A stretch of 64,000 bases of DNA from Methanobacteriota archaeon (lineage in GTDB: Archaea > JAADCQ01 > Methanopyri > Methanopyrales > Methanopyraceae), in contig JAMOPO010000015.1 in NCBI GenBank assembly GCA_027064425.1, positions 32,001-96,000 of the forward strand, in the 5' to 3' direction. The translations under genes were made by a program, and so were the position numbers. The notes under the pieces were generated by a model. It saw only the letters and a list, made by a program, of their open reading frames with translations, ran no database searches and had not been told where the DNA came from. Positions 41,115 through 56,600 of the stretch are shown here, piece by piece; positions within the stretch are counted from its first letter, which is position 1; each line of letters starts with the position of its first letter.

Positions 41115-41873
41115 TTGGACGCCCGGGCCGGCCTCGCCGTGGGCCTCATAGCGGCCCTGATCGTCGGCGCGGCGGTCGGGCACTATTACACCTCATCCCA
41201 GCAGCTGACCGTTTTCGCGGCCGCGAGCCTGAAGAAGCCGCTGACCGAGCTGGCCAGGCGGTACGAGAAGGAGAGGGGAGTCAAGGTCGCGCTCAACTTC
41301 GGCCCGTCCGGCGGTCTCACGGCACAGATAATGCAGGGGCAGAGGTGCGACCTGTTCTTCTCCGCGGACTGGAGGTACATCGTCAAGCTGCGGAAGGCCG
41401 GCAAGGCCGCGAGGACGAGGAAGTTCCTGAGGGATTACCTTGTGCTGGTCGTCTCCGAGACGGGCCGACGGAAGCGCATCGAGGACGTCAGGGACCTCAC
41501 AAGGCCGGGCGTGACGGTCGCCGTCGCCGACCCGAAGGCGCCAGTCGGCGAGTACGCTCAGCGCGCGCTGCAGCGGCTCGGGATCTGGGACACGATCGTC
41601 AAGAACGGGAACCTGAAGGCTCGGCCGGGTACCGTCAATCAGGTGGCCACGATGGTGAAGAAGGACCAGGTGGACGCCGGATTCGTCTATCGGAGCGTGG
41701 CCGTCGGATTCGGGCTGCCGATCGTGCAGACGCTCCCGCACTCGCTGACGGGCCCGATCGTCTGGGGAGCGGCGGTGATCAGGGGAGGCAACGAGCGGCT
41801 GGCCGAGGACTTCCTGAGCTACTGCCTGCAGCACATCGACGAGTTCGAAAAGTACGGGTGGGAACCGGCTTGA
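41115..41873 (+). CDS. modA: Molybdate/tungstate ABC transporter binding protein
   Basis: FAAASL, NFGPSGGL..QI..G, DLFFSA, APVG.YA, DAGFVY.S. Confidence 0.92.
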   Translation: MDARAGLAVGLIAALIVGAAVGHYYTSSQQLTVFAAASLKKPLTELARRYEKERGVKVALNFGPSGGLTAQIMQGQRCDLFFSADWRYIVKLRKAGKAARTRKFLRDYLVLVVSETGRRKRIEDVRDLTRPGVTVAVADPKAPVGEYAQRALQRLGIWDTIVKNGNLKARPGTVNQVATMVKKDQVDAGFVYRSVAVGFGLPIVQTLPHSLTGPIVWGAAVIRGGNERLAEDFLSYCLQHIDEFEKYGWEPA

Positions 41874-42661
41874 TCGGCAGGTACGAGCTCCTCGGCGCCC
41901 TGTTCCCACCCTTGTTCTTCCTGTTCATCGTGTTCCCGCTGGTGGTCCTGGCGCTGAACTTGACCCCGCAGGGGCTCGCGCAGGCGCTCGGTGACCCGTA
42001 CTTTTGGTCCGCCACGTTCAACACCATCCTGTGCGCCGTCGCGGCCGCGGTAATGGGCGTGGTGATCGCGGTGGGCTTCGGTTACTACCACCTGTTTAAG
42101 CGGGACTCGGTGATTTACCGGGTCGCCGACTTCCTCAACGACTTGCCCATCGCGCTGCCGCACACCGTTGCGGGACTCGCGCTGCTGCTCGCGTTCGGTC
42201 GACGGTACTTCTGGTGGCTGGGCGAGAACGGACTCGCGTTCACGCTCGTCGCCGTCACGCTCGCGATGCTCTTCGTGTCGTACCCGCTGGCCGCCCGAGC
42301 GGTGCAGGCGGGCCTTGAGGAGGTGGGGAGAGATCTCGTAGAGGTCGCCAGGACCCTGGGGGACTCCCCGGCGCAGGCCTACGCCAGGGTCGTCATCCCG
42401 GCGCTCCGGGAGGCCTTACTGGGCGGGTTCCTCCTCGGGTTCTCACGGTCGCTCAGCGAGTTCGCCGCCGTGATCATGTTCGGTGGAAACCTGCCCGGAA
42501 GGACCCAGGTGCTGGCCTCCTACGTGTTCACCCGGGTCGAGGCGGGCGACCTGGAGGCGGCCGTCGCGGCCAGCGTCTTCTGCATGGTACTCTCGCTGGT
42601 CATGGTGGCGCTGACACGCTCGCTGACCGGGGCCGGGGGACTCCGACGTGCTCAAGGTTGA
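41870..42661 (+). CDS. modB: Molybdate/tungstate ABC permease
   Basis: DLPIALPHTVAGLALL, EVARTLG, RSLSEF. Confidence 0.92.
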   Translation: MIGRYELLGALFPPLFFLFIVFPLVVLALNLTPQGLAQALGDPYFWSATFNTILCAVAAAVMGVVIAVGFGYYHLFKRDSVIYRVADFLNDLPIALPHTVAGLALLLAFGRRYFWWLGENGLAFTLVAVTLAMLFVSYPLAARAVQAGLEEVGRDLVEVARTLGDSPAQAYARVVIPALREALLGGFLLGFSRSLSEFAAVIMFGGNLPGRTQVLASYVFTRVEAGDLEAAVAASVFCMVLSLVMVALTRSLTGAGGLRRAQG

Positions 42662-43337
42662 GAACGTGCACTTCTCCTACGGCGACAGACCCGTCCTGCG
42701 CGGCGTGAGCCTGAGCGTTGAACCGGGCGAGGTGCGCGTGATCTTCGGTCCTAACGGCAGCGGCAAGTCCACGCTGCTGAGGGTCGTGGCCGGGATACTG
42801 CGGCCCGACCGGGGCCGGATCGTCATCGACGGGGAGGACGTCACCGACCGGCCACCCGAGGACCGTCGGGTCGGCTACGTCCCGCAGCGCCCGACACTGT
42901 TCCCGCACCTCACGGTGCGGGGTAACATCACCTACTCTTTAAGGAACGGTCGGGGGGACCCGGATCGACTGGACGAGCTCGTCAAGCTGCTGGGACTCGA
43001 GGAACACCTCGACCGGCGCCCGGACGAGCTCAGCGGTGGCTATCAGAGCCGCGTGGCGCTGGCCCGAGCGCTCTTCTCCGACCCCCGGGTGCTGCTTCTG
43101 GACGAGCCGCTCAGCGACGTCGATCCCGCCGCGAAGCGGGACCTGGTGAGGCGGTTTCGAGAGGTCCTTGACCGGGCGGGCGTGCCCACGCTCTACGTGA
43201 CGCACGACCCGTGGGAGGCGGAGTGCGTCGGTGACTCTTATACGGTGTTGCTGGGCGGCAGGGCGGTCGACGTCGACACCGTTGACGAGGCGATCGAACG
43301 GCTCAAGCGGGGCGCAGGCCTTGGGGAAGGGGCGTAA
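42648..43337 (+). CDS. modC: Molybdate/tungstate ABC ATPase
   Basis: GPNGSGKST, LSGG, LLLDEP, YVTHD. Confidence 0.9.
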   Translation: MLKVENVHFSYGDRPVLRGVSLSVEPGEVRVIFGPNGSGKSTLLRVVAGILRPDRGRIVIDGEDVTDRPPEDRRVGYVPQRPTLFPHLTVRGNITYSLRNGRGDPDRLDELVKLLGLEEHLDRRPDELSGGYQSRVALARALFSDPRVLLLDEPLSDVDPAAKRDLVRRFREVLDRAGVPTLYVTHDPWEAECVGDSYTVLLGGRAVDVDTVDEAIERLKRGAGLGEGA

Positions 43338-44580
43338 GTACCGCGGGTTCGTCTACACCGACGACCTCACCCACCCGGCGAAGTTCCTCGAGTTCCTCCG
43401 CGAGCGCGTCGAGCCGCCGGAAGTCGAGGAGCTGGAAGTGGGGCCCGAGGTCGCCGGGCGCGTCCTGGCAGAGGACGTCCGGGCCGAGCGTCCCTCCCCG
43501 CCGTTCACTCGGTCCGCCATGGACGGGTACGCCGTCCGGGCCGAGGACGCGGAGCCCGGGGCCCGGCTGAAGGTGGTGGGGGAGTCCCGGATCGGCGAGG
43601 AGAGCGGGGTCAAGGTCGGGCCCGGGGAGGCGGCGTACGTGGACACCGGCGCCCGCGTTCCCGAGGGCGCCGACGCGGTCGTGCCGGTGGAGTTCGTGGA
43701 GCGTGACGGGGACGAGATCGTCATCAAGGAGGGGGTGGAACCGGGCGACAACCTGGATCGGCGGGGCTGCTACGTCGAGGAGGGTGAGATCCTGTACCCG
43801 GCCGGCCACGTGGTGGAGCCCGTGGACGTGGGCGTCATGCTGGAGCACGGGGTTGAGGAGGTCCGGGTCCGTCGCCCGCTGCGCGTCTCGGTGATCATCA
43901 CCGGGAGCGAGCTCGTGGAGCGGCCCTCGGAGCTCGAGTCTGAGACCCAGGTGGTTGAGTCGATCGGGCCCGTACTCGAGGCGGAGCTGGCCAGGCTGGG
44001 CTTCACCAAGCTCCTGGACCGGAGGCTCGTGGAGGACGACCCGGGGGAGATCGAGCGCGCGATCGTCGACGCCGCGGCCGAGTCCGACGTGCTGATCGTC
44101 ACCGGCGGGTCCTCCGTGGGCGAGCGGGACTACGTCAAGGAGATCCTCGAGGACGTGTTCGAGGACTTCATTCACGGGATCCGGGCCCGGCCCGGCCGTC
44201 CGTTCGGCGTGGCGCTCCGCGAGGACGCCGTGGCGTTCACCCTTCCGGGCTGGCCCACGTCGGCCTACACGACCTTCCGCGTGTGGGTGACCCCGTGCCT
44301 GCTCGCCCTGGCGGGCGCGGATCCGGAGGTTCTCGGCCTTGAGCTGCCGTGCGAGGAGGTCAGGGGTAAGAGGGCCCTGGGCGTGATCGCCCGGGTCAAG
44401 CTGGAGGATGGTCGGGCACGCGGGCTCCCGAGGGACCGCTCCAGCCATTACGCCCTCTTCCGTGAGACCGACGCCCTGGCCGTGCTCCCGCCGGGCGAGG
44501 AGGAGCGCGCGCTGATTCTGCCGCTGAGGCGCCGCGTGAACCCCTTCGAGTGGGTGGAGCGACGCTCAGGCGGCGACTGA
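43321..44580 (+). CDS. moeA: Molybdopterin molybdo/tungstotransferase
   Basis: GRVLAED, SAMDGYAV, GADAVV, TGGSSVG..D, PGRP, LPG.P. Confidence 0.93.
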   Translation: MGKGRKYRGFVYTDDLTHPAKFLEFLRERVEPPEVEELEVGPEVAGRVLAEDVRAERPSPPFTRSAMDGYAVRAEDAEPGARLKVVGESRIGEESGVKVGPGEAAYVDTGARVPEGADAVVPVEFVERDGDEIVIKEGVEPGDNLDRRGCYVEEGEILYPAGHVVEPVDVGVMLEHGVEEVRVRRPLRVSVIITGSELVERPSELESETQVVESIGPVLEAELARLGFTKLLDRRLVEDDPGEIERAIVDAAAESDVLIVTGGSSVGERDYVKEILEDVFEDFIHGIRARPGRPFGVALREDAVAFTLPGWPTSAYTTFRVWVTPCLLALAGADPEVLGLELPCEEVRGKRALGVIARVKLEDGRARGLPRDRSSHYALFRETDALAVLPPGEEERALILPLRRRVNPFEWVERRSGGD

Positions 44581-44662: not shown

Positions 44663-44899
44663 TTGGTCGAGATCAAGGTCCACGAGGACCGATGCCACGG
44701 GTGCGGTAACTGCGTCGTCGCCTGCCCCGTCAACGCCAGGAACTCGCCGAACGCGTGGGGAGGGAAGGGGCCGGAGGAGGACGACGTCGTCATCAAGGTG
44801 GTGAACGGGGTGGTGAAGGTCGTAAACGAGGACCTGTGCGAGGCCTGCCTCACCTGCGAGCTCGCCTGTCCCGTCGACGCCATCGAGGTCCGGCCCTGA
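44663..44899 (+). CDS. fwdG: Formylmethanofuran dehydrogenase subunit G (ferredoxin)
   Basis: CHGCGNCVVACPVNA, CEACLTCELACP; TTTTTAT upstream at 44620. Confidence 0.93.
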   Translation: MVEIKVHEDRCHGCGNCVVACPVNARNSPNAWGGKGPEEDDVVIKVVNGVVKVVNEDLCEACLTCELACPVDAIEVRP

Positions 44900-44913: not shown

Positions 44914-45312
44914 TTGGCCGAGTTCACTCTCATCACCGGCCGAACCATCTGGCAGGGGGAGGCTATCGAGACGGGCAAGGACGAGGAGATTTACCCCGAG
45001 GCCGTCGCGGTCTGCTACTTCAACCCGGCCGACATGGAGGAGCTCGGCATCCGGGATGGCGACCCCGTCAGGGTCAGGTCCGAGCACGGAGAGGTCGTCG
45101 TGAGGGCTCGCGCGGCCGAGACCGACGTCCCGCCCCGCGGGGTCGTGTTCATCCCGATGGGCCCGTGGGCGAACCGGGTGGTGGACCCGGACACCGCCAG
45201 CACCGGAATGCCGGGGTTCAAGGGCGTCAAGGTCGAGGTGGAACCCACGGATGAGGAGCCTGTCGAGGACATGTCCGAGCTGATGCGCAAGGAGTACCTG
45301 AAGGAAGAGTAG
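44914..45312 (+). CDS. fwdD: Formylmethanofuran dehydrogenase subunit D
   Basis: LITGRTIWQG, FIPMGPWAN, TGMPGFKG. Confidence 0.95.
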   Translation: MAEFTLITGRTIWQGEAIETGKDEEIYPEAVAVCYFNPADMEELGIRDGDPVRVRSEHGEVVVRARAAETDVPPRGVVFIPMGPWANRVVDPDTASTGMPGFKGVKVEVEPTDEEPVEDMSELMRKEYLKEE

Positions 45313-45374
45313 CCCTCACGCTCACCCTCTGGCGCTCGAGCTCGCCCTCTACAGCGGGAAGGGGGTGAGAACGA

Positions 45375-46679
45375 GTGGGGGACAGGGAGGTAGTCAAGGA
45401 CGTGGTGTGCCCGTTCTGAGGGACGCTGTGCGACGACCTAGAGGTGGTCGTGGAGGACGGTAAGATCGTCGAGGTGCGGCACGCGTGCAGGATCGGTGCG
45501 GCGAAGTTCCTCAGCGCGCAGGAGGAGGACCGGCCGACGGAGCCGATGATCCGGGAGAACGGTGAGTGGAAGAAGGTCGACTACGAGGACGCCGCCGAGG
45601 AGACCGCTCGGATCCTCGTCGAGGCCAAGCTGCCGATCCTGTACGGCTGGTCCGCCACGCTGGTTGAGGCGCACGAGAAGGGTATCGAGCTAGCGGAGCT
45701 CGTCGGTGGCGTCATCGACAACACCGCCTCGGTGTGACACGGCCCGTCGGTGCTGGCGCTCCAGGACGTGGGCGTGCCCAGCTGCACGCTGGGCGAGGTG
45801 AAGAACAGGGCGGACACGATCATCTACTGGGGCAGCAACCCGATGCACGCTCACCCGCGGCACATGAGCCGGTACACCACGTTCGCGCGCGGGTACTTCC
45901 GGCCGAAGGGTCGCCAGGACCGCACGATCATCGTCGTGGACCCGCGGAAGACCGCGACCGCCCGGCTAGCGGACGTGTACATCCAGGTGCGGCCGCACGA
46001 GGACTACGAGCTGATCAGCGCGCTCCGCGCGGCGGTGCACGGGGTCGAGATCGAGCGGGAGGAGGTCGCCGGCGTCCCGGTAGAGAAGATCTACGAGGTC
46101 GCGGACCTGCTCAAGGAGGCGAGCTTCGGCACGCTGTTCTGGGCCATGGGCCTGACGATGTCCCGCGGTAGGCACCGGAACATCGACAACGCGATCTGCC
46201 TGGTCCGGGACCTAAACGAGCACACCAAGTGGGTCCTAATCATGATGCGCGGGCACTACAACGTGACAGGGTTCAACGAGGTGCTCGCGTGGACCACGGG
46301 CTACCCGTACGCCGTGGACTTCACCCGCGGGTACCCGCGGTACAACCCGGGCGAGACCAGCACCGTGGACCTGCTGACCCGCGGCGAGGCGGACGCGATG
46401 ATGGTGGTCGCCAGCGACCCGGGCGCGCACTTCCCGCAGAAGGCGGTGGAGCGGATGGCCGAGATCCCGCTGGTGTGCGTGGACCCGCACTGGACGCCGA
46501 CGGCCGAGCTCGCGGACGTGTACGTGCCCACGGCGATCGCCGGCATCGAGTGGGAGGGCACCGCCTACCGCATGGATGCGGTACCCATCCGCATGCGCAA
46601 GGTCGTCGACCCGCCCGAGGGCCTGCTCAACGACGTCGAGTTCCTCGAGATGGTCATCGAGAAGGTCGAGGAGATGTAA
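45375..46679 (+). CDS. fwuB: Tungsten formylmethanofuran dehydrogenase subunit B, selenoprotein with two in-frame UGA (codons 15 and 121), 434 aa
   Basis: GTG 45375 after RBS GGGGGTGA. VVCPF-TGA(45417)-GTLCDD and DNTASV-TGA(45735)-HGPS lie in one frame, both at conserved Cys positions. SECIS in the 3' UTR. Confidence 0.93.
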
Positions 46680-46712
46680 CGCCAAACCCCGGCACTCGGG
46701 GTCCCCGGGCCG

Positions 46713-46752
46713 CCCCGCGGGGCGAACCCCGCACCCGGGGAGCCCCGCGGGG
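46713..46752 (+). promoter_or_regulatory. Archaeal SECIS element (3' UTR of fwuB)
   Basis: CCCCGCGGGGC-GAA-CCCCG-CACC-CGGGG-A-GCCCCGCGGGG: 11-bp stem, GAA/A internal loop, GC apical stem. Confidence 0.92.
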
Positions 46753-46818
46753 TTAAGCGGGGGTAAGCCCCCCGCGGCCCGGGGCCCTCACCCCCTCCTC
46801 CCCTCAGGGGGTCCTCCG

Positions 46819-47145
46819 TTGGGGCGCGATCCCGAGCCCCGCTGCCCGTACTGCGGGTCCCCGTCCTGCGTCAACGAGTCCGCCCTGTCGCTGTTCCTCC
46901 GCGCCTCCGAGCGCATCGCGAGATACGTCGTGAAGGAGCGAGACAAGGTGGACGATGACGACCCCCTGTTCCGCCCCTCCTTCGGCGAGGTTGGCGTCTG
47001 CCGAGAGACCTCGCGCCGGATTTGGGCGTGCCCGTACTGCCGCTCCCTGATCCCCGAGCCGGAACCCGACGGGATGACCGCCCGGTGCCCCGAGTGCGGT
47101 CGCGAGGCCAACGTTGCCCCCTCACGCCGCAAGATCGTGTGCTGA
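46819..47145 (+). CDS. Small Cys-rich (zinc-finger-like) protein inside the fwd cluster
   Basis: TTG start; CPYCGSPSC, C, CPYC, CPEC and a terminal C; 108 aa. Confidence 0.7.
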   Translation: MGRDPEPRCPYCGSPSCVNESALSLFLRASERIARYVVKERDKVDDDDPLFRPSFGEVGVCRETSRRIWACPYCRSLIPEPEPDGMTARCPECGREANVAPSRRKIVC

Positions 47146-47154
47146 CGCGGGGGG

Positions 47155-48903
47155 ATGCCCTTGGCCAAAGAGCTCCTGATCAAGAACGCGTGCGTGTACG
47201 ACCCGCTCAACGGTATTGAGGGCGAGGTGATGGACCTGGGCGTGAAGGATGGCAAGATCGTGGACCCGTCCGAGGTGGACGAGTCGAAGGCGAAGGTCAT
47301 CGACGCGGAAGGACGCCTGACCATGGCCGGTGGGGTCGACATTCACGCGCACGTGGCCGGGCCCAAGGTGAACGTCGGCCGCATCTTCCGCCCGGAGGAC
47401 AGCCGCCGGCTGCAGGTGGCGCTCAAGAAGCTCGGTCCCCGGTCCGGCTCCGGCTTCTCCGTCCCGTCCACGACGCTGACGGGCTACATGTACGCGCAGA
47501 TGGGCTACACGACCGTGATGGAGGCCGCGACCCCGCCCCTAATGACGCGGCACACGCACGAGGAGATCCGGGACACGCCCATCCTGGACCAGAGCGCCTA
47601 CACTCTGATGGGTAACAACTGGATCCTGTACGAGTACATCCGGGAGGGAGAGCTGGAGAAGGCGGCCGCGTTCGCGGCCTGGCTGCTGCGGGCGACGAAG
47701 GGCTTCGTGATCAAGATGGTCAACCCCGGCGGCACGGAGGCGTGGGGCTGGGGTAAGAACGTCCACAGCCTGGACGACGAGGTCCCGTACTTCGGCCTGA
47801 CGCCGGCGGAGATCTACCAGAACTACGTCAAGATCAACGAGCTGCTGGGCCTACCGCACTCCATCCACATCCACCCGAACCTGCTGGGCGAGCCCGGCAA
47901 CTACGAGATCACCCTGGGCACGTGGGACGCGGTCCGTGACGCGGGCGTCGATCCCGACCCGCAGCTGGGCGAGCGGGAGCAGATCGTGCACAGCACTCAC
48001 GTGCAGTTCCACGCGTACGGTGGTGACTCCTGGGCGACCTTCGAGTCCCGGGCGGAGGACATCGCGAAGTACCTGAACAAGCACGAGGAGGTCACGATCG
48101 ACCTGGGCGCCGTGACCCTCGACGAGACCACGACCATGACCGCGGACGGCCCGCTGGAGTGGGAGCTGCACGAGCTGACCGGCTTCAAGTGGGCGAACTG
48201 CGACGTCGAGGTCGAGACCGGCTCCGGCGTCGTCCCGTTCATTTACAGCCCGAAGAACCCCGTGCACTCCGTCCAGTGGGCCATCGGCCTCGAGATCGCC
48301 CTGCTGACCGAGAACCCGTGGCAGGTGGTCATCTCGACGGACCACCCCAACGCCGGCCCGTTCCACCGGTACCCGCGGGTCATCGCCTGGCTGATGAGCG
48401 AGCCGTACCGGGAGGAGTGGCTGGAGAGAGTGCACGACTGGGTCGGCCAGCGCGCGGTTCTGGGCACCATCGACCGAGAGTACACCTGGACGGAGGTGGC
48501 CATCACCACCCGGGCCGCGCCCGCCAAGATGCTGGGACTGTCCGATCGGATCGGGCACCTGGGCGAGGGCGCCTACGCGCACATCGCGATCTACGACATC
48601 AAGCCGGACGAGGTGGACCCGTCCCGGGACTACGCTGAGGTCGAGCGAGCCCTGGAGCAGGCTTGGCTGGTCGTGAAGGACGGCGAGATCGTCGTGCAGG
48701 ACGGCGTGGTGGTCAACGAGGTTACCGGTCGGACCTACTGGGTGGACGTGAAGGTGCCCGAGGACATCCTGGAGGAGGTGAAGAAGGACCTGGAGACCAA
48801 GTTCCGGCGCTACTACTCCGTGAACCTGGGCAACTACCAGGTGCAGGACGTGTACCTCCCGCGAGAGGAGCGGATCGTGATCGACGCCCGAGACCGCTTC
48901 TAG
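47155..48903 (+). CDS. fwdA: Formylmethanofuran dehydrogenase subunit A
   Basis: GGVDIHAHVAG, GYTTVMEAA, KMVNPGG, TDHPNAGPF, TRAAPAK. Confidence 0.97.
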   Translation: MPLAKELLIKNACVYDPLNGIEGEVMDLGVKDGKIVDPSEVDESKAKVIDAEGRLTMAGGVDIHAHVAGPKVNVGRIFRPEDSRRLQVALKKLGPRSGSGFSVPSTTLTGYMYAQMGYTTVMEAATPPLMTRHTHEEIRDTPILDQSAYTLMGNNWILYEYIREGELEKAAAFAAWLLRATKGFVIKMVNPGGTEAWGWGKNVHSLDDEVPYFGLTPAEIYQNYVKINELLGLPHSIHIHPNLLGEPGNYEITLGTWDAVRDAGVDPDPQLGEREQIVHSTHVQFHAYGGDSWATFESRAEDIAKYLNKHEEVTIDLGAVTLDETTTMTADGPLEWELHELTGFKWANCDVEVETGSGVVPFIYSPKNPVHSVQWAIGLEIALLTENPWQVVISTDHPNAGPFHRYPRVIAWLMSEPYREEWLERVHDWVGQRAVLGTIDREYTWTEVAITTRAAPAKMLGLSDRIGHLGEGAYAHIAIYDIKPDEVDPSRDYAEVERALEQAWLVVKDGEIVVQDGVVVNEVTGRTYWVDVKVPEDILEEVKKDLETKFRRYYSVNLGNYQVQDVYLPREERIVIDARDRF

Positions 48904-48918
48904 CGGGGGAGCGACCCC

Positions 48919-49722
48919 GTGAGGGAGGTCATCCTGACGCCGAAGGAGCGGCCCGACGTACCGCTGGAGGCGGAGGTGATCACGCCGGACGAGTTCGCCG
49001 GCAGGGACCCCGAGGAGATCCTCGAACTCACCGTGTACGAGGGCAACCGAGAGCGCGAGCTGGGCGACTTCTTCGACCTAGAGGGCCGGCCCGGCGACTC
49101 GGCCGACGAGACCCGCATCGTCATCGACGGTGACGTCGACCACGTGAAGCTCATCGGCCACGAGATGAGCGGCGGAGAGATCATCGTCGAGGGCGACGTC
49201 GGCCGCCACGCCGGCGCCCAGATGGAGGGCGGCAGGCTCGTGGTCAAAGGTGACGCCGACGACTGGGTCGGGCGCGAGATGAAGGGCGGCGAGATCATCG
49301 TCAAGGGTGATGCGGGCAACTACGTCGGCGCGACCTACCGGGGCGAGTGGCGCGGTATGAGCGGTGGCCGGATCGTCGTCAAGGGCGACGCCGGCGACGA
49401 GATCGGCGAGTGGATGTCAGACGGCGAGATCGTCATCGAGGGCGACGCCGGCATCATGATCGGCATTCACATGCAGGGTGGTCAGATCATCGTCCGGGGC
49501 AGTTGCGGCGTCCGTCCGGGCGCGGAGATGGAGGCGGGTACTATCGTCGTGCAGGGTCGCGTCGAGGACATCCTCCCGACCTTCAAGTACCAGGGCACGG
49601 AGCGTGACCCGGTCGATGGAGTGTCCGGGGAGTTCCACCTGTTCAAGGGTGACTACTCCAACGGTCCCGACGTGAAGGGCAAGCTCTACGTGGACGCCGC
49701 GCTCAACGACGTCCCCGAGTAG
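48919..49722 (+). CDS. fwdC: Formylmethanofuran dehydrogenase subunit C
   Basis: Repeated GxxMxGGxIxVxG beta-helix; GATYRGEWRGMSGG. Confidence 0.97.
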   Translation: MREVILTPKERPDVPLEAEVITPDEFAGRDPEEILELTVYEGNRERELGDFFDLEGRPGDSADETRIVIDGDVDHVKLIGHEMSGGEIIVEGDVGRHAGAQMEGGRLVVKGDADDWVGREMKGGEIIVKGDAGNYVGATYRGEWRGMSGGRIVVKGDAGDEIGEWMSDGEIVIEGDAGIMIGIHMQGGQIIVRGSCGVRPGAEMEAGTIVVQGRVEDILPTFKYQGTERDPVDGVSGEFHLFKGDYSNGPDVKGKLYVDAALNDVPE

Positions 49723-50166: not shown

Positions 50167-52059
50167 TTGAGCTGGTGGAGGGCGGCGGTACCCCTCCTCG
50201 CCGCGGTGCTGCTGTGCCTCGGGTCGGGCCAGGCGCTGCAGGTTCAGTGGCAGGTGACGCTGGACCAGGCCATGCAGTGGAACGAGCAGGAGAAGAAGTG
50301 GACCGACCAGTCCGTCGCCTCCCGCGACGGGTACTACTACCAGATCCGCGGCCCGGCCGTGGCCACGGACGGTGACGTGGTCCTCGTCGCCTGGGAGGAG
50401 TGGTCCGAGGGCGGAACCACGGTCGGCAGGATCGGGCTGAAGGCCGTGGATACCGGTGGTCAGGTGGTGGGGGAGGCCACCGTCAACCCCGATGAGAACT
50501 GCGTGATGTTCGGGCCGGCGCTGGCCAGCTACGGTCGGGGCGAGTTCCTGCTGGCGGTCGCCGAGGTGCCGTCGGACAAGCTTCAGACCCAGGATTACGG
50601 GACGCTGAAGGTGTACAAGGTGACCGTGGCGAACGGCCAGGTGACCTGCAACCCGGTGAACGTCACCGCGAGCAACGGCGCCTACCCGTACCTGGTCCAC
50701 CTGGGCCGGGACGCGTCCGGTAACGAGTACGTAGCGCTCCTGTACGAGTCCTGGTCGCCCGACTCCGGCGCGGGCGACGTCGTCCTGCAGGTGCTGAAGA
50801 TCGACACGTCGGGCAACGTGACCGCCCTGTGGTCGACCCCGCTGACGGTCGCTAAGGGCGTGTGCAAGGACTACGTGAAGGACAACGTCCACTACTTCGG
50901 TCACGCGCGGCCGGTGGCCTCGGTGTACCGCGACGGCGGTAGCGAGTACCTGATCGTGGCGCTGACCGACTACTCGAGCGCGACGCCGAACATCTCGAGC
51001 TGGGGCTTCTTCGGCGAGTGGCGGGGCTGCAAGGTCCGCGCGTTCGTGATCCAGCTGCCAGGTGACCTGTCCGAGCTGGAGCGGAGTCAGCCGAGCGTGA
51101 TCGAGGTCCAGGGCAGCCTCACGCTGATCAACGACACGAACGAGCTGCCGTGGGTCGCGGACAACGTGATCGTGTACCGGGCCGGCCCGCTCTGGGGCAG
51201 CATGAGCGCCTCGGACACGACGCCGGACATCTACGCGGCCGTCATCGAGAATGAGGGCGGTCAGTGGGTCTTCAAGTGCGACCGGCCCGTGTACCGGCGG
51301 ATCTACACGCAGACGGCCCCGTGCGTGGTCCATGTGTACAATGACACCAGCGGCGGTCGCTATTACCTGGTGGTGTTCTCGGACAACAGCGGCGGGTTCG
51401 GTAAGGAGCGAATCGCCGGGGTCCTGCTGAGGTACAAGAGCGGCCGGCTGCAGGTGCTGGCCCAGTACGACCTGACGGGGTACGGGAACGGCGTGTACTT
51501 CTACTGCCCGACGGCGGCCGCGGTGGCGACGGAGTACGGTAACGCCGAGGTGGCGGTGACGTTCTACAAGGGCGACTCAGGGTACGGTGGGCACAAGATC
51601 GGCGACGTGGTCGTCGACCTGGCGGTGATCGGCGAGCCGGTCGAGGAGATGGCTTCCTGGGTGGAGCAGCTCGTCTCGGAGCTGGAGCGGACGCGCGTGG
51701 ACCTGCAGCAGGGTCTGAAGAACGTGCAGCGCGACCTGAAGAGCACCAAGAAGGAGCTGGACAGCGTCAAGCAGGACGTCGACAAGGTGAAGCAGGATCT
51801 CCAGGGTGTGCGGAGCAAGGTGAGCGATCTCGAGAAGAAGGTGAAGGACGTCGAGAGCCGGATCAGCGGCGTGGAAAGTGAGATCCAGGGCGTCAAGAGC
51901 GAGGTGAAGAGCGTGAAGGAGGAGGTGAGCGGCGTGAAGGGCAAGGTGGAGAGACTGGAGGGGCGAGTGAGCAAGCTGGAGCGGCGCAAGATTCCGGTGG
52001 CCGGTGCGGTGGCGCTGCTGTCACTGATCGCCGCGCTGGCGGCGCGCCGGCGGCACTAG
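50167..52059 (+). CDS. Secreted surface protein: beta-rich domain, coiled-coil stalk and C-terminal sorting signal
   Basis: Signal peptide; heptad repeats about 51650-51985; KIPVAGAVALLSLIAALAARRRH tail. Confidence 0.85.
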   Translation: MSWWRAAVPLLAAVLLCLGSGQALQVQWQVTLDQAMQWNEQEKKWTDQSVASRDGYYYQIRGPAVATDGDVVLVAWEEWSEGGTTVGRIGLKAVDTGGQVVGEATVNPDENCVMFGPALASYGRGEFLLAVAEVPSDKLQTQDYGTLKVYKVTVANGQVTCNPVNVTASNGAYPYLVHLGRDASGNEYVALLYESWSPDSGAGDVVLQVLKIDTSGNVTALWSTPLTVAKGVCKDYVKDNVHYFGHARPVASVYRDGGSEYLIVALTDYSSATPNISSWGFFGEWRGCKVRAFVIQLPGDLSELERSQPSVIEVQGSLTLINDTNELPWVADNVIVYRAGPLWGSMSASDTTPDIYAAVIENEGGQWVFKCDRPVYRRIYTQTAPCVVHVYNDTSGGRYYLVVFSDNSGGFGKERIAGVLLRYKSGRLQVLAQYDLTGYGNGVYFYCPTAAAVATEYGNAEVAVTFYKGDSGYGGHKIGDVVVDLAVIGEPVEEMASWVEQLVSELERTRVDLQQGLKNVQRDLKSTKKELDSVKQDVDKVKQDLQGVRSKVSDLEKKVKDVESRISGVESEIQGVKSEVKSVKEEVSGVKGKVERLEGRVSKLERRKIPVAGAVALLSLIAALAARRRH

Positions 52060-53616
52060 CGGTGCGACGGGGATCACCTTGGGCTTCCGCGGTTTCTTCT
52101 CCCCTCCCGCCGGTGCCGTCCTCTTCTTGTGGCTCACCTCGGTCCTCTGGGCCGTCTTGCTAACCTTCCCGCTCACCTTCTTCTCGGACCCGGACTCCAC
52201 GGCCTCAGCTCCCTCGGCGGCTCCGGTTTCTACGCGGCTCGGCTGATTAGTGCCGTAGTACAGGTCCGGTCGCAGGTACGCCTCGAGCGCCCTCATGGCG
52301 TACGATGTCGCCCAGATCGAGGCGGGCTCGTAGGAGGCCCCCTCGGCGGTGCTCGTGACGTTCCTCGCCGGCCAGGGCCACCCGCCGTACCACTCCGGGT
52401 GTCCCAGCCTCAGGGCGTCCTCGCGCCACTGCTGGGAGACTAGCCACGCGATCGTGGCGTGCACGTTGTACTCCGGGTCCGTGATCAGGTCCGCCAGCCT
52501 GCGCTCGCCTCCGGGGGTCTTGACCGGCACGTCCGCGCCCACGTTGAACCAGATCGCCTTGAGGACGGCCAACCGGAGCACGTTGGCCGTGACGGTGGTC
52601 TCCGGTGATCCCTGGGCCTCGAGGTAGGCCGCTGAGTACGCCCAGGCCGGGCCCCTGCCGAGCTCCGTCTGGACCCACGTGACGCCCGCCTTGTCCGAGT
52701 TGAACAGCCACTGCAGGCCCAGCTTGATGGCCTTCAGTATCCGATCCTCGCTCACGTTCAGGCCGAGCCGATCGGCCAGCCGGTAGACGTCGATCAGCGT
52801 TGAGAGCACGTAGGCCTGGGTGTCGGCCGAGTACTCCTGGCACATCAGGCCGGAGTACCAGGAACCGTCCTCGTTCTGGTTCCTCAGCAGCCACTCGACG
52901 CCGCGCTCGACGGCCCTCTTGACGCGCTCGACGAGGTCCGAGGGAAGTCCCAGCTCGCTCCGGCGCTGCAGGACCTCGAGCAGGGCGGAGACGGCCGCCG
53001 CCGTGTGCCACGCGGAGCCCTCCTTGGACTCCTCCTTCTTCCTGCTCCATCCGCCGTCCTCCAGCTGCTCGTCCAGGAGCCAAACCACCGCCCGCTTGAC
53101 CGCGTTGAGGACCTCGGGAGAGTCACCACCGATCCTGAGGAGCAGCCGGATCCCGGCGGCGGTGTCGGACGTTTGGCTGCCGGAGTGCACGATCCCGCGG
53201 TAGGCCCAGCCGACCCCCCAACCGCCGTCCTCGTTCTGGTTCTCAACCGCCCACCTGACGGCCGCCCGCAGGGCCTCCCGCCACTCCCGCTGGGGCGGCT
53301 CGGCCGGGACTCCGTCCGGCGCGCGGTCCGGTAGCAGGCCCATTTCATCCGCCAGGTGCAGCGCCGGGCACGCCAGGCAGATGGACTTCAGCTCGTAGTT
53401 GAACGTCGGCTTCCACAGGTGCTCACTGGGCAGGTACCAGCCGCCCTTGTCCGCCGGCACGAACCACCAGACGGCTCCCGCCTCGATGGCCCCCCTGCAG
53501 GACCCGGACAGCCGCTGGTAGGCGCCGGTTTTCGTCCAGTCCAGAGCCAGGCCGGGGGTAAGCTGGGCGAGCAGGGCCGCGAGCAGGATCGCGACGGGGC
53601 GGCTCAGCGCGGTCAC
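52021..53616 (-). CDS. Secreted prenyltransferase/squalene-cyclase-repeat (alpha/alpha toroid) protein
   Basis: Signal peptide; repeated W(L/A)xxxQxxDGxW motifs; Lys/Pro-rich tail ending IPVAPLVPPARR. Confidence 0.85.
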   Translation of the reverse strand: MTALSRPVAILLAALLAQLTPGLALDWTKTGAYQRLSGSCRGAIEAGAVWWFVPADKGGWYLPSEHLWKPTFNYELKSICLACPALHLADEMGLLPDRAPDGVPAEPPQREWREALRAAVRWAVENQNEDGGWGVGWAYRGIVHSGSQTSDTAAGIRLLLRIGGDSPEVLNAVKRAVVWLLDEQLEDGGWSRKKEESKEGSAWHTAAAVSALLEVLQRRSELGLPSDLVERVKRAVERGVEWLLRNQNEDGSWYSGLMCQEYSADTQAYVLSTLIDVYRLADRLGLNVSEDRILKAIKLGLQWLFNSDKAGVTWVQTELGRGPAWAYSAAYLEAQGSPETTVTANVLRLAVLKAIWFNVGADVPVKTPGGERRLADLITDPEYNVHATIAWLVSQQWREDALRLGHPEWYGGWPWPARNVTSTAEGASYEPASIWATSYAMRALEAYLRPDLYYGTNQPSRVETGAAEGAEAVESGSEKKVSGKVSKTAQRTEVSHKKRTAPAGGEKKPRKPKVIPVAPLVPPARRQRGDQ

Positions 53617-53669: not shown

Positions 53670-56600
53670 GTGATACAAGTAGTTTCAGCTTTGCTTTTGG
53701 CGCTTTTAGTGGTCCAGTCCCCCGTTTCCGCCGCTCCCGTCGGACCCGTGGAAATCACGATCTTCGGGAACGCGGCTAAGGGGTCGCCCGAGGAGGTCAA
53801 GCTGGTGGAGGAGACCGTCTACTCCGACCTCGGGATTCGGGTCAAACTGCACGTTCACAACGTGCTGGTGAGCTGGGGCGACCAGAGCGCGCCGGTGGAC
53901 TTCGACGCGCTGGCACGGGACATCGAACGGTCGCAGATCGTCGTGCTCGACAACATGGGCCCGCTACCGGGACCGTTCGTGGAGGAGCTCTCCTCTCGGG
54001 TGCTCGGCCACCCGGTGACCGACGTCTCGAGCTTCTTCCGCGAGCTGGCGCGGCGGAAGCGGCTCGTCGCCTGCGTGACGGGTGACCAGCACGACTTCAT
54101 CCTCCTCGGCCCCGGGTGCCGCAGAATCTGCGACAACACGGCCGCGGTCGCCAACTTGGGCTTCCTGTTCCGGTTCTCGGACTCGCTGGTGCCGGTGGTG
54201 GAGTACCTGCTGTGGCTCGCGTACCCGGACGTGCCCGCGGAGCGGCTTCGCCTCTCCTCCATCCGCGTCTCCTTCGTGGCCGCCTATGTGCCCGGTCGGG
54301 GATGGGTGTTCCCGGAGGTTTCCGGCGCCGAGCTGGAGCGGGCGTACCACGAGTGGCTCCGCAGGCTGGAGTCGGGCCGCGGTGGGGGGCTGTGGTTCGA
54401 GGTTAGGATGGCGATCCTGCCGTCCTGGGTCAGGGGGTTGCGCGAGCGCTGCCTGGGCTTCCTCAAGGGATTGAATCTGCCGACACGCCGGCTGGTGGTC
54501 GTGCTGGACTACGTCGACGCGCTGTACAAGGGTGAAGCGGACCTGGTGGTCCGGATCGTGGAGGCCGTTCGGAGCGAGCTGGAGCGGGCCGGCCTGAAGG
54601 ACGTGGGCGTCATCGCCCTGCTCTGCGACGGGAACGTGGTCTCCCCGGTGGACTACCAGGGGACCGGGCTCCTGCAGGAGCTCAGGCGCCTGGGCTACGA
54701 GGTGGCCGCGGTGGTCTCCCTGTGGGCGTTCACGATGAACTACCCGGACTCGGCCGCGTGGGCGCTCATGGAGCTCGACGCGCCCGTGATCAAGGTCGTG
54801 TATCCGTTCTGGGCCGACTGGCTCTGCGAGCCGTGGCGCTACCTGAACATGGAGCGGGGCTCGCCCGACACTGGGCTCACCGGGGCCGTGTTCGAGTGGA
54901 GCTACCAGGTGGTCGGCGGGCCCGAGCTGGAGGGCGCGTTCTGGTTCAAGCTGTGCGCGCTGAAGCGGACCGGGGAGATGCGGCTCCTGCCACTGCGGGA
55001 CGTGATCGAGGATCTCGCTCGGTTAGTCACCGGGTTCGTGCGGCTCCGTTACCTGCCGGAGTCGAGGAAGCGGGTCGCGTTCATCCTCTACTGCTACCCG
55101 CCGGGCCGGGACGCGATCGGCGCCTCGTACCTGGACGTTTTCCGGTCGCTGATCAACGTCCTAACGGCCATGGTCGAGCGGGGGTACGACCTGGGTCCGG
55201 CGACCCCGTTGTTCCGCACGTTGGCGGAGCTGCGGCGCCGGGATCCCGGGGCGGCTGAGGAGTTCGAGGAGCGGCTGGCTCACGCCCTGATGGAGGCCGC
55301 GGACCTGGTGCTCAAGAACGTGGGGCCGTGGGCGAAGGGTGAGCTCGCGGAGATGGTCCGGCTGTACCGGGGTGGGCGCGCCGAGCGCGTGATCCGCTGG
55401 AGGTCGGGCGAGATGAGGGTCACCGTAGAGGGCGGGCGAGTGGTCTGGGTGGACGTGGACGGGCGCTCCTACGTGCTCGGCACGGTCGGGCCGGACCAGC
55501 TGGTGCCCGTGGAGGAGCTCGAGCGGTGGTATCGGGAGGACGTCCTCCCCCGGTTCCGGTACTACCTGTCCCTGCTGCAGGGTGACGATGAGCGGGTGCG
55601 GCGGGCGCGGGAGTCGCTTGAGCGGTGGATGAGGGCGGTGGAGCGCTGCTTCGGGCCGCCGACGGACAACAGGGGGATCATGCGGTGGGGCCGGCACTAC
55701 GTCATCCCGGCGCTCAGGCTGGGCAACGTGGTGATCATGCTGCAGCCCGTCAGGGGGTGGTCGGGCTCCCCGGAGCTCGTGTACCACTCGCCGGACCTGC
55801 CGCCGCAGTGGCAGTACATCGCCGCGTACGAGTGGCTGCGCCGCGTGTTCCGGGCGGACGCGGTGGTGCACGTGGGCACGCACGGGACGCTGGAGTGGTT
55901 GCCGGGACACCAGGTGGGGCTGCTGGGCGTGGACTGGTCGCACCTGCTCCTACCCGACGTCCCGCACTTCTACATTTACATCGTCAGTAACCCGGGCGAG
56001 GCCATGGTCGCCAAGTACCGATCCGGCCCCGTCCTCCTCACGCACCTCCCACCAGCCTGGAGCTACTTCCGCGACTTCAAGAGGTACGGCAGGCTGTGGC
56101 GCGAGATCACGCACTACCTGCAGCTGCGGATGATCGGTGGAGACCCGAGGGTGATGGGGGAGATCCGCAGGCGGATCGTGGAGGAGGCGGAGCGCCTGGG
56201 ACTGCTGCGGACCGTGGTCGACGCGATCCTGTCGGAGCAGGGTGGTGGTACGGCTCAGGACCCGAGGCGGTGGGCGCTTGAGCACTTCGACGAGTTCGTG
56301 GACAAGCTGCACGACTTCCTGCTGGAGCTGGCGCTGAGCAACGTGGCGTACGGGCTCCACGTGTACGGTCGGGATCCGGACCCGGAGGTCGCGCTGGAGG
56401 AGGCGAGCGCGCTAGCCTCCTCGATGATCAAGGTCAACGCCGTCTTCGCTTACTACGCGGGGCTGATCGGGTACCCGGACCCGGGCGAGCTGGAGCGGTT
56501 CCGGGCGGAGCGTCCCGACGAGTTCGTGACGTTCAAGACTCGACTCCGGGAGTGCCTCCGGCGGATCCTTTCCGAGGTCATCCGAGACCCCGTCCTAGTC

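Follow-up and report, generated by a model that had tools for sequence, protein, structure and literature searches.

Two in-frame UGA codons in a methanogen fwuB gene: a predicted second selenocysteine at an iron-sulfur ligand position

The locus described here raises the question of what is encoded by an in-frame UGA at codon 15 of a gene that carries a further UGA at its active site. The window, i.e. the whole stretch of 64,000 nucleotides that was analysed, belongs to a genome assembly of 1.54 Mb (57 contigs, 99.17% complete), which was compared with five relatives of the same genus. The standard-code list of open reading frames breaks the gene, fwuB, into parts of 97 and 309 residues, which the original prediction had joined into one frame with two TGA codons. 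Such a frame is indeed present on the plus strand: 434 codons run from GTG45375 to the TAA at 46677-46679 without frameshift and without TAA or TAG inside the frame. When TGA is read as selenocysteine (Sec, U), exactly two codons are recoded, U15 (45417-19) in the context VVCPF-U-GTLCDD and U121 (45735-37) in the context DNTASV-U-HGPS.

The features that can be tested from its sequence place the gene product in the FwuB family. It scores 683.6 bits against TIGR03129 (FwdB; cut-off 327.8) over residues 9-431, that is over its full length, and is 87-90% identical to the orthologues of the same genus. At codon 121 the aligned residue is X in PDB 9sfi_Q and Cys in 5t5i_B, which places U121-H-G-P at the Cys/Sec-His tungsten ligand motif and agrees with the tungsten-coordinating role predicted for TGA45735. 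The operon also comprises fwdD, fwdA and fwdC (Table 1). The N-terminal four-Cys motif has C12, C19 and C38 in place and TGA at position 15, and is complete only if this codon is recoded. PF04879 matches residues 10-35 with an E-value of 0.002, below its cut-off. A single-sequence AlphaFold model was unusable (pLDDT 35.3) and was not drawn on. The gene is shown to encode the selenium-dependent tungsten formylmethanofuran dehydrogenase subunit B of a Methanopyrus-type species, the genus being suggested by agreement of these sequences with a labelled Methanopyrus FmdB N-terminus.

Several neighbouring genes were also noted. The ferredoxin gene upstream of fwdD occupies what we take to be the FwdG position. 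The small Cys-rich ORF downstream of fwuB has several CxxC motifs, and similar ORFs start after fwuB in the sister genomes. Directly upstream of the operon (window 41115-44580) lie moeA and ABC transporter genes, the latter presumably resembling those of molybdate/tungstate uptake. An ORF of 1,840 aa (window 53670-59192) with a low-complexity tail and a C-terminal hydrophobic anchor presumably resembles the large subunit of cobalt/magnesium chelatase; its neighbours (window 50167-53616) look like secreted or anchored proteins.

Table 1. Features of the fwd operon and of the recoded fwuB gene (window coordinates)
Feature	Position	Strand	Basis
Small 2x[4Fe-4S] ferredoxin upstream of fwdD	44663..44899	+	ORF; ferredoxin-type NCBIfam matches below cut-off
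fwdD, pterin-binding D subunit	44914..45312	+	NF042908, 197.8 bits (cut-off 175)
Conserved leader ACA(A/G)C(G/T)G-N1-3-AGGGGGTGA, includes Shine-Dalgarno (45361-45368)	45351..45368	+	Motif comparison
fwuB, W-formylmethanofuran dehydrogenase subunit B, 434 aa	45375..46679	+	TIGR03129; two in-frame TGA
N-terminal cluster motif C12-x2-U15-x3-C19-x18-C38	45408..45488	+	Family comparison
TGA codon 15, inferred second selenocysteine at [4Fe-4S] ligand position	45417..45419	+	Lineage-specific
TGA codon 121, canonical W-ligating selenocysteine (U-H-x-P)	45735..45737	+	PDB alignment
Archaeal SECIS, GAA/A internal loop at 46724-26, 12-bp lower stem	46712..46753	+	Fold, pattern scan
Second hairpin, three-way junction with SECIS	46757..46775	+	Conserved in 5/5 same-genus fwuB 3' UTRs
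Small Cys-rich (CxxC) ORF between fwuB and fwdA	46819..47145	+	No family over cut-off
fwdA, amidohydrolase subunit	47155..48903	+	TIGR03121, 876 bits
fwdC	48919..49722	+	TIGR03122, 325.6 bits

Recoding of UGA in this gene can draw on a SECIS element and on a Sec machinery. The canonical SECIS predicted at 46713-46752 was recovered as a fold with a stem, the GAA/A bulge, a GC-rich upper stem and a 4-nt loop (-36.5 kcal/mol, z = -5.34, 0 of 200 shuffles equally stable), and it is kept in the five same-genus fwuB 3' UTRs that were aligned. It agrees with the definition of the methanogen SECIS as a UTR element with a GAA/A motif flanked by G-C pairs given in the available text of PMC11881835. Rfam holds no matching SECIS model and returned only a chance snoRNA match. 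The second hairpin is GC, with a two-sided change in only one of 32 pairs. A genome-wide pattern scan gave 19 SECIS candidates, a single one of them near fwuB. Seven of them stand out by their stability (-25.7 kcal/mol or lower, the others -14.9 or weaker) and belong to fwuB, hdrA, vhuD, vhuU, fruA and selD and to the region 5' of fdhA; an AAA/A variant of the element was seen at one further locus (L013). The genome also encodes tRNA-Sec, a SelB scoring over its cut-off and a SelD read from its frame, and the tRNAs found include a single one with a UCA anticodon. A single UGA is present in each of FdhA, FruA, SelD and VhuU, and VhuD has the two that are usual for it. The distance from U15 to the SECIS is 1,294 nt, that from the canonical HdrA Sec to its own SECIS 1,452 nt in this genome. 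According to the available text of PMC9622424, Sec is inserted at three engineered positions under a 3' SECIS in M. maripaludis, and neither distance nor context sets a strict limit.

The position of the first UGA is highly constrained. TGA45417 was predicted to replace the second Cys of the CxxCxxxC motif, and a tabulation of this codon across FwdB relatives confirms the assignment: codon 15 is TGC or TGT in all 47 FwdB genes of other genomes, the five sister genomes contributing 10 of them, codons 12, 19 and 38 are likewise TGC or TGT throughout, and no second species has TGA at codon 15. This tally excludes one duplicate locus as well as matches below 40% identity or without coverage of residues 12-38; in it, codon 121 is TGA in 35 of the 47. 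The CxxCxxxC-x17-20-C motif is intact in 120/120 further homologues, and 9sfi_Q has Cys at the position matching codon 15. The homologous Cys of FdhA, which is also a SECIS gene in this genome, remains TGC. Both fwuB UGAs align to conserved Cys, one criterion for a methanogen-type archaeal selenoprotein gene. FwuB has only six Cys in total, so no spare ligand is available nearby. Because all outgroups have Cys, TGA15 is the derived state and, as shown by this comparison of orthologues, codon 15 changed from TGY to TGA on the branch of this species, whose FastTree placement within the genus is weakly resolved (0.34 in the FwuB tree). From their conservation and from what is established for the DMSO reductase family, we take the four Cys of the motif to be the ligands of the proximal [4Fe-4S] cluster. 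The N-terminal [4Fe-4S] cluster of that family is described in the available text of PMC10100899.

Searches for a similar gene elsewhere gave no second case. Of 40 Methanococci genomes, 37 gave a match, and none of these showed a two-TGA FwdB; a third, divergent FwdB paralogue (41-46% identity), again with one TGA, is common among the Methanococci (e.g. L028). The pattern C-P-x-TGA-G-x-x-C-D-D had 71 matches in genome contigs, none of them FwdB, and 111 in metagenome contigs, one of them FwdB, although close neighbours of this genome may be absent from the contigs scanned; no relative was found in viral contigs. The single metagenomic match (L115, 1-357, minus strand) is a Bathyarchaeia-type fwdB on a contig of 630 nt, with TGA at the codon-15 Cys, cut before the tungsten ligand. 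It was rejected as independent support, since relatives 97-99% identical are full-length with Cys; its TGA is probably an error, and spurious TGY-to-TGA changes do occur at this site.

A parallel change is found in hdrA of the same genome (C27:219142-217130, minus strand; one assembly), which has U16 (VFVCH-U-GVNI, at C27:219097) beside the canonical U200. This second TGA surfaced in a codon-model scan for in-frame stops whose output was otherwise dominated by gene boundaries, and it lies 2,004 nt from the SECIS of hdrA. There is one TGA in hdrA of 5/5 sister genomes and in all 36 Sec-type hdrA matches from 40 Methanococci genomes. Alignment with two solved HdrA sequences shows four conserved Cys in the N-terminal domain, codon 16 matching the second; this residue is therefore a candidate ligand of the HA3 'shuttle' cluster described in the available texts of PMC13580544 and PMC12350162. 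The canonical HdrA Sec sits in a Cys-Sec relay and not in a cluster (PMC13518236, available text).

Both genes have also lost their Cys-encoded counterparts. Methanogens need formylmethanofuran dehydrogenase, and fwuB is the sole full-length FwdB gene of the assembly. On another contig (C49:1-3800, minus strand, L247), vhcD-vhcG-vhcA are intact and are followed by a deletion that cuts the Cys-isoform operon: codon ~176 of hdrA(Cys) is joined out of frame to codon ~268 of fwcB, with only 2-3 nt of shared sequence at the junction (C49:491). One deletion, seen in one assembly, thus destroyed the Cys backups of both fwuB and hdrA. A second fwcB remnant (C57:8172-8369) is frameshifted. An intact Cys operon could have escaped assembly or binning, the genome being in 57 contigs. 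Several species of the genus seem to be losing the Cys operon: hdrA(Cys) of G001 is frameshifted near codon 122 and fwcB of G005 (L029, C216) near codon 82. These two sister genomes nevertheless have single UGAs, which indicates that loss of the backup is not sufficient on its own for a second UGA. G001 also has a second, hdr-linked fwdB (L004, C1:553194-554489) with TGA121, identical in protein sequence to its fwuB, and no SECIS-like hairpin was found at this locus; this suggests a gene conversion that may have silenced the backup. In the present genome, the two extra UGAs lie in SECIS genes, at a conserved N-terminal cluster Cys, and in exactly those genes whose Cys backups are broken. Three points had escaped the earlier note on this DNA: the restriction of the change to one species, its parallel in hdrA and its association with the loss of the Cys backups.

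Taken together, these comparisons make it probable that a SECIS-directed selenocysteine at codon 15 gives FwuB a selenium-ligated proximal [4Fe-4S] cluster. Four other readings were weighed against it. The first is compatible with Sec insertion and concerns the value of the codon, a UGA at codon 15-16 being useful as a regulatory early checkpoint. When Sec-tRNA is short, translation would stop after about 14 codons and would not release fragments of 120 aa (FwuB) or 199 aa (HdrA), which carry cluster ligands and could poison the assembly of Hdr-Vhu-Fwd; the ligand Cys would simply be the first Cys codon able to change. The two new UGAs and the first UGA of VhuD do fall at codons 15, 16 and 15, in each case with Gly as the next residue, but C12 of FwuB and C14 of HdrA come earlier and are unchanged, and two events cannot tell position from chemistry. 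The Shine-Dalgarno sequence GGGGGTGA (45361-68) is separated from GTG45375 by 6 nt and has the form found in those sister-species orthologues that run through as Cys15, and a restart at GTG45444 would lose C12, U15 and C19. A start downstream of the first UGA, which the original prediction had named as evidence against itself, is thus not what was found, since the Shine-Dalgarno sequence and GTG45375 lie upstream of UGA15. The fwuB leader is common to Sec-type hdrA and was not seen at the starts of the Cys isoforms. In its 21-nt form it occurs only twice in the genome, at window 45351-45377 and at C27:219166-219140 (hdrA); a looser motif, derived from the fwuB and hdrA leaders themselves, has 9 matches in the five sister genomes, all at fwuB or hdrA, and 0 in a reversed control. 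The leader is a possible translation element of the Sec isoforms, and it may couple the translation of fwuB and hdrA to selenium supply. Its restriction to these two genes favours a checkpoint, but the sisters with one UGA carry it too, and it is hence independent of the new codon; for the same reason it was rejected as the cause of the second UGA. A hairpin occluding the Shine-Dalgarno sequence of fwuB was considered and dropped (z = -1.85 here; -1.41, +0.80 and -0.84 in sisters). A checkpoint as the reason for the new codons is, on this evidence, unlikely.

The second reading is that TGA15 is a nonsense allele or an assembly error, the gene being silenced or mis-called while an unassembled Cys isoform does the work. 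The assembly is fragmented, and the Bathyarchaeia-type gene shows that an isolated TGA can be spurious here. The base was checked in assembled contigs of public sequencing runs, not in raw reads, and four of the six listed runs, none of which was an RNA run, aligned. A piece from run X1 of study P1 (45300-45452, 153 nt, depth 67), which may be the source sample of this assembly, bridges codon 15 with 0 differing letters. In run X2 of study P2, a piece covering 45302-45439 (depth 299.6) ends 20 nt past codon 15 and keeps TGA15, with T45350C as its sole difference, so this run carries TGA15 in a different strain; a second piece (45410-45499, depth 317.7) overlaps the first by 30 nt, and the two are presumably adjoining pieces of the assembly graph. 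A piece from run X3 (45300-45452) has one differing letter whose place is not shown, and a small share aligned in run X6 does not cover codon 15. A point in favour of error is that, for related genes, these runs also contain contigs of higher depth that differ from the window. The contigs of X1 and X2 nonetheless keep TGA at 45417, where TGC or TGT would have spoken against the original prediction, and the presence of TGA15 in contigs of two runs from two studies makes an assembly error unlikely; TGA15 is probably not one. At the protein level only, the fragment between the two UGAs falls in a cluster of 11 proteins. Seven of these are 119 aa long and have Cys15, two come from this assembly, and the remaining two belong to further NCBI assemblies (on contigs of 36,005 and 3,839 nt), in which gene calls of 95 and 97 aa, one of them with four substitutions, start after codon 15.

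The state of the gene and of the rest of the genome also argues against silencing or error. The frame is otherwise intact, as is the SECIS, and pairwise dN/dS of fwuB against four sister orthologues is 0.03-0.17 (values that include the sister branches); the further lesions or relaxed selection expected of a pseudogene were not found. The Cys backups are broken and not merely missing. TGA occupies a coding frame in 0/86 complete CxxCxxCxxxCP ferredoxin motifs elsewhere in the genome, in contrast with the parallel TGA of hdrA. Of 492 codons aligned to a Cys of the sister genomes, 437 are TGY and four TGA, all four in fwuB or hdrA; some of the 492 are in non-coding frames, and the survey outside the SECIS genes was partial. 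Of the Cys codons, which number at least 3,567 in 987 gene-like ORFs, 64 (<2%) lie in the SECIS genes, a share that makes random error unlikely: the odds that two random TGAs would both fall in SECIS genes are about 3 in 10,000. A silenced or mis-called gene is thus very unlikely.

In a third reading, UGA15 is read mostly as Cys, by a near-cognate tRNA-Cys or by a Cys-loaded tRNA-Sec, and the cluster has sulfur or a sulfur/selenium mixture. Charging of tRNA-Sec with Cys occurs at low selenium in mammals, in favour of this reading. A SECIS cannot obviously distinguish two UGAs, and the genome has the single UCA-anticodon tRNA mentioned above. Sec-independent UGA suppression exists in M. maripaludis, but this SECIS-independent read-through is below 1% of wild type in the available text of PMC9622424, too low for a sole essential enzyme. 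Decoding as Cys is accordingly very improbable, slightly more so than an error. Finally, a genome-wide or partial reassignment of UGA, which the two extra in-frame TGAs might suggest, is effectively refuted by the stop-codon counts, TGA ending 496 of the 987 gene-like ORFs and the supported in-frame TGAs being all in SECIS-bearing genes.

Insertion of Sec at codon 15 could have arisen as follows. The second Cys codon of the N-terminal CxxCxxxC...C motif changed from TGY to TGA in an mRNA that already had a 3' SECIS, and archaeal SECIS elements recode UGA with little positional constraint. SelB and tRNA-Sec would then most likely insert Sec at both codon 15 and codon 121. The mature FwuB would have one selenium on the tungsten and one as an iron ligand of the proximal [4Fe-4S] cluster, which, judging from the invariant motif, would be the last relay before the CO2-reducing tungsten centre. 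The same process would have given HdrA its second Sec at codon 16. With neither gene present as an intact Cys isoform in the assembly, CO2 reduction and electron bifurcation would depend obligately on selenium in this organism, and this dependence would remove the cost of an extra UGA under low-selenium conditions. Whether the swaps were selected, tuning low-potential clusters, or tolerated is about even; cluster tuning, drift permitted by the SECIS and an early checkpoint all fit the data and are not exclusive.

The known systems offer partial precedents. Vorholt et al. 1997 is said to be the reference on FwuB of Methanopyrus kandleri and the Methanococcales. These proteins share TIGR03129, the U-H-x-P tungsten ligand and the 3' GAA/A SECIS with the present one, but they are without TGA at codon 15, and the present genome is without an intact Cys isoform. 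They are tabulated in the available parts of PMC2933860 and PMC13188914. Table 1 of the latter, a 2026 review, gives 'No. of Sec = 1' for FwdB, one for HdrA and two for VhuD; its available text adds that no role has been established for selenium in FwdB and that, for most families, direct interactions between Sec and ligand await confirmation. The expectation that only the active-site Sec had been described for FwuB is thus upheld, and the statements that this Sec is known and that one SECIS can serve two UGAs, as in VhuD, find support in the available texts of PMC13188914 and PMC4989117.

VhuD/MvhD of the Methanococcales and Methanopyrus also has two UGAs under one 3' SECIS, the first at codon 15, and PDB 9sfi_K has X at both Sec sites. 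Its second Sec aligns to a Cys that we take to be a [2Fe-2S] ligand. It differs in being a [2Fe-2S] protein and not a [4Fe-4S] tungsten enzyme, in having Sec sites conserved across orders, and in the spacing of its UGAs, ~50 codons against 106 in FwuB and 184 in HdrA; its 50 codons are the record spacing under one methanogen SECIS in the available text of PMC4989117. MvhD Cys16, which corresponds to the first VhuD Sec site, is an additional cysteine near the cluster (PMC13580544, available text). Lokiarchaeal HdrA has up to four Sec, with extra Sec at conserved Cys and one SECIS acting over ~2 kb, but it belongs to the Asgard lineage, has a eukaryote-like SECIS, and most of its Sec sites are not cluster ligands; the methanogen protein has one Sec (PMC4989117, available text). 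FdhA/FdhF, of the DMSO reductase family, shares the fold, with a match to TIGR01591, a Sec on Mo/W and the N-terminal [4Fe-4S] motif (PMC10100899, available text), but has one Sec (PMC13188914, available text) and Cys as cluster ligands; the FdhA of this genome is no exception.

Neither a two-Sec FwdB nor a two-Sec methanogen HdrA was found in the open-access literature, subscription papers and some supplements lying outside this scope, and the literature covered yielded no list of individual ligand residues for FwdB or HA3. The available texts of PMC11227280, PMC2933860, PMC10779653, PMC12054007 and PMC11656701 make no mention of a second FwdB Sec; the available supplement of PMC11227280 gave no match for the Sec motifs tried, its Table S6 on the SECIS elements of Methanopyrus selenoproteins being outside this scope. 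By analogy with the second Sec of VhuD and with Lokiarchaeal HdrA, a selenium-ligated Fe-S cluster would not be without precedent. What appears to be new here is a predicted Sec at an Fe-S ligand of a catalytic subunit of the DMSO reductase family, and a gain that is recent and, within a single methanogen species, affects two genes.

Why Sec replaces Cys is a long-standing question, and a recent one-base gain of Sec can be compared here with sister orthologues that are ~88-94% identical. The gained sites would be metal-cluster ligands and not catalytic thiols. M. maripaludis is genetically tractable and its fwuB and hdrA already have a SECIS, so that the effects of selenium ligation on cluster potential, CO2 reduction and bifurcation are testable. 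The case also illustrates how a gene with an existing SECIS can acquire new Sec sites, and that gene callers break two-UGA genes into three pieces. The finding is confined to one uncultured species and has partial precedents. It is possible, though rather doubtful, that the locus represents both a natural single-codon experiment in the tuning of Fe-S clusters by Sec in the CO2-fixing supercomplex of a methanogen and the first enzyme of the DMSO reductase family found with selenium on its catalytic metal and on its relay cluster.
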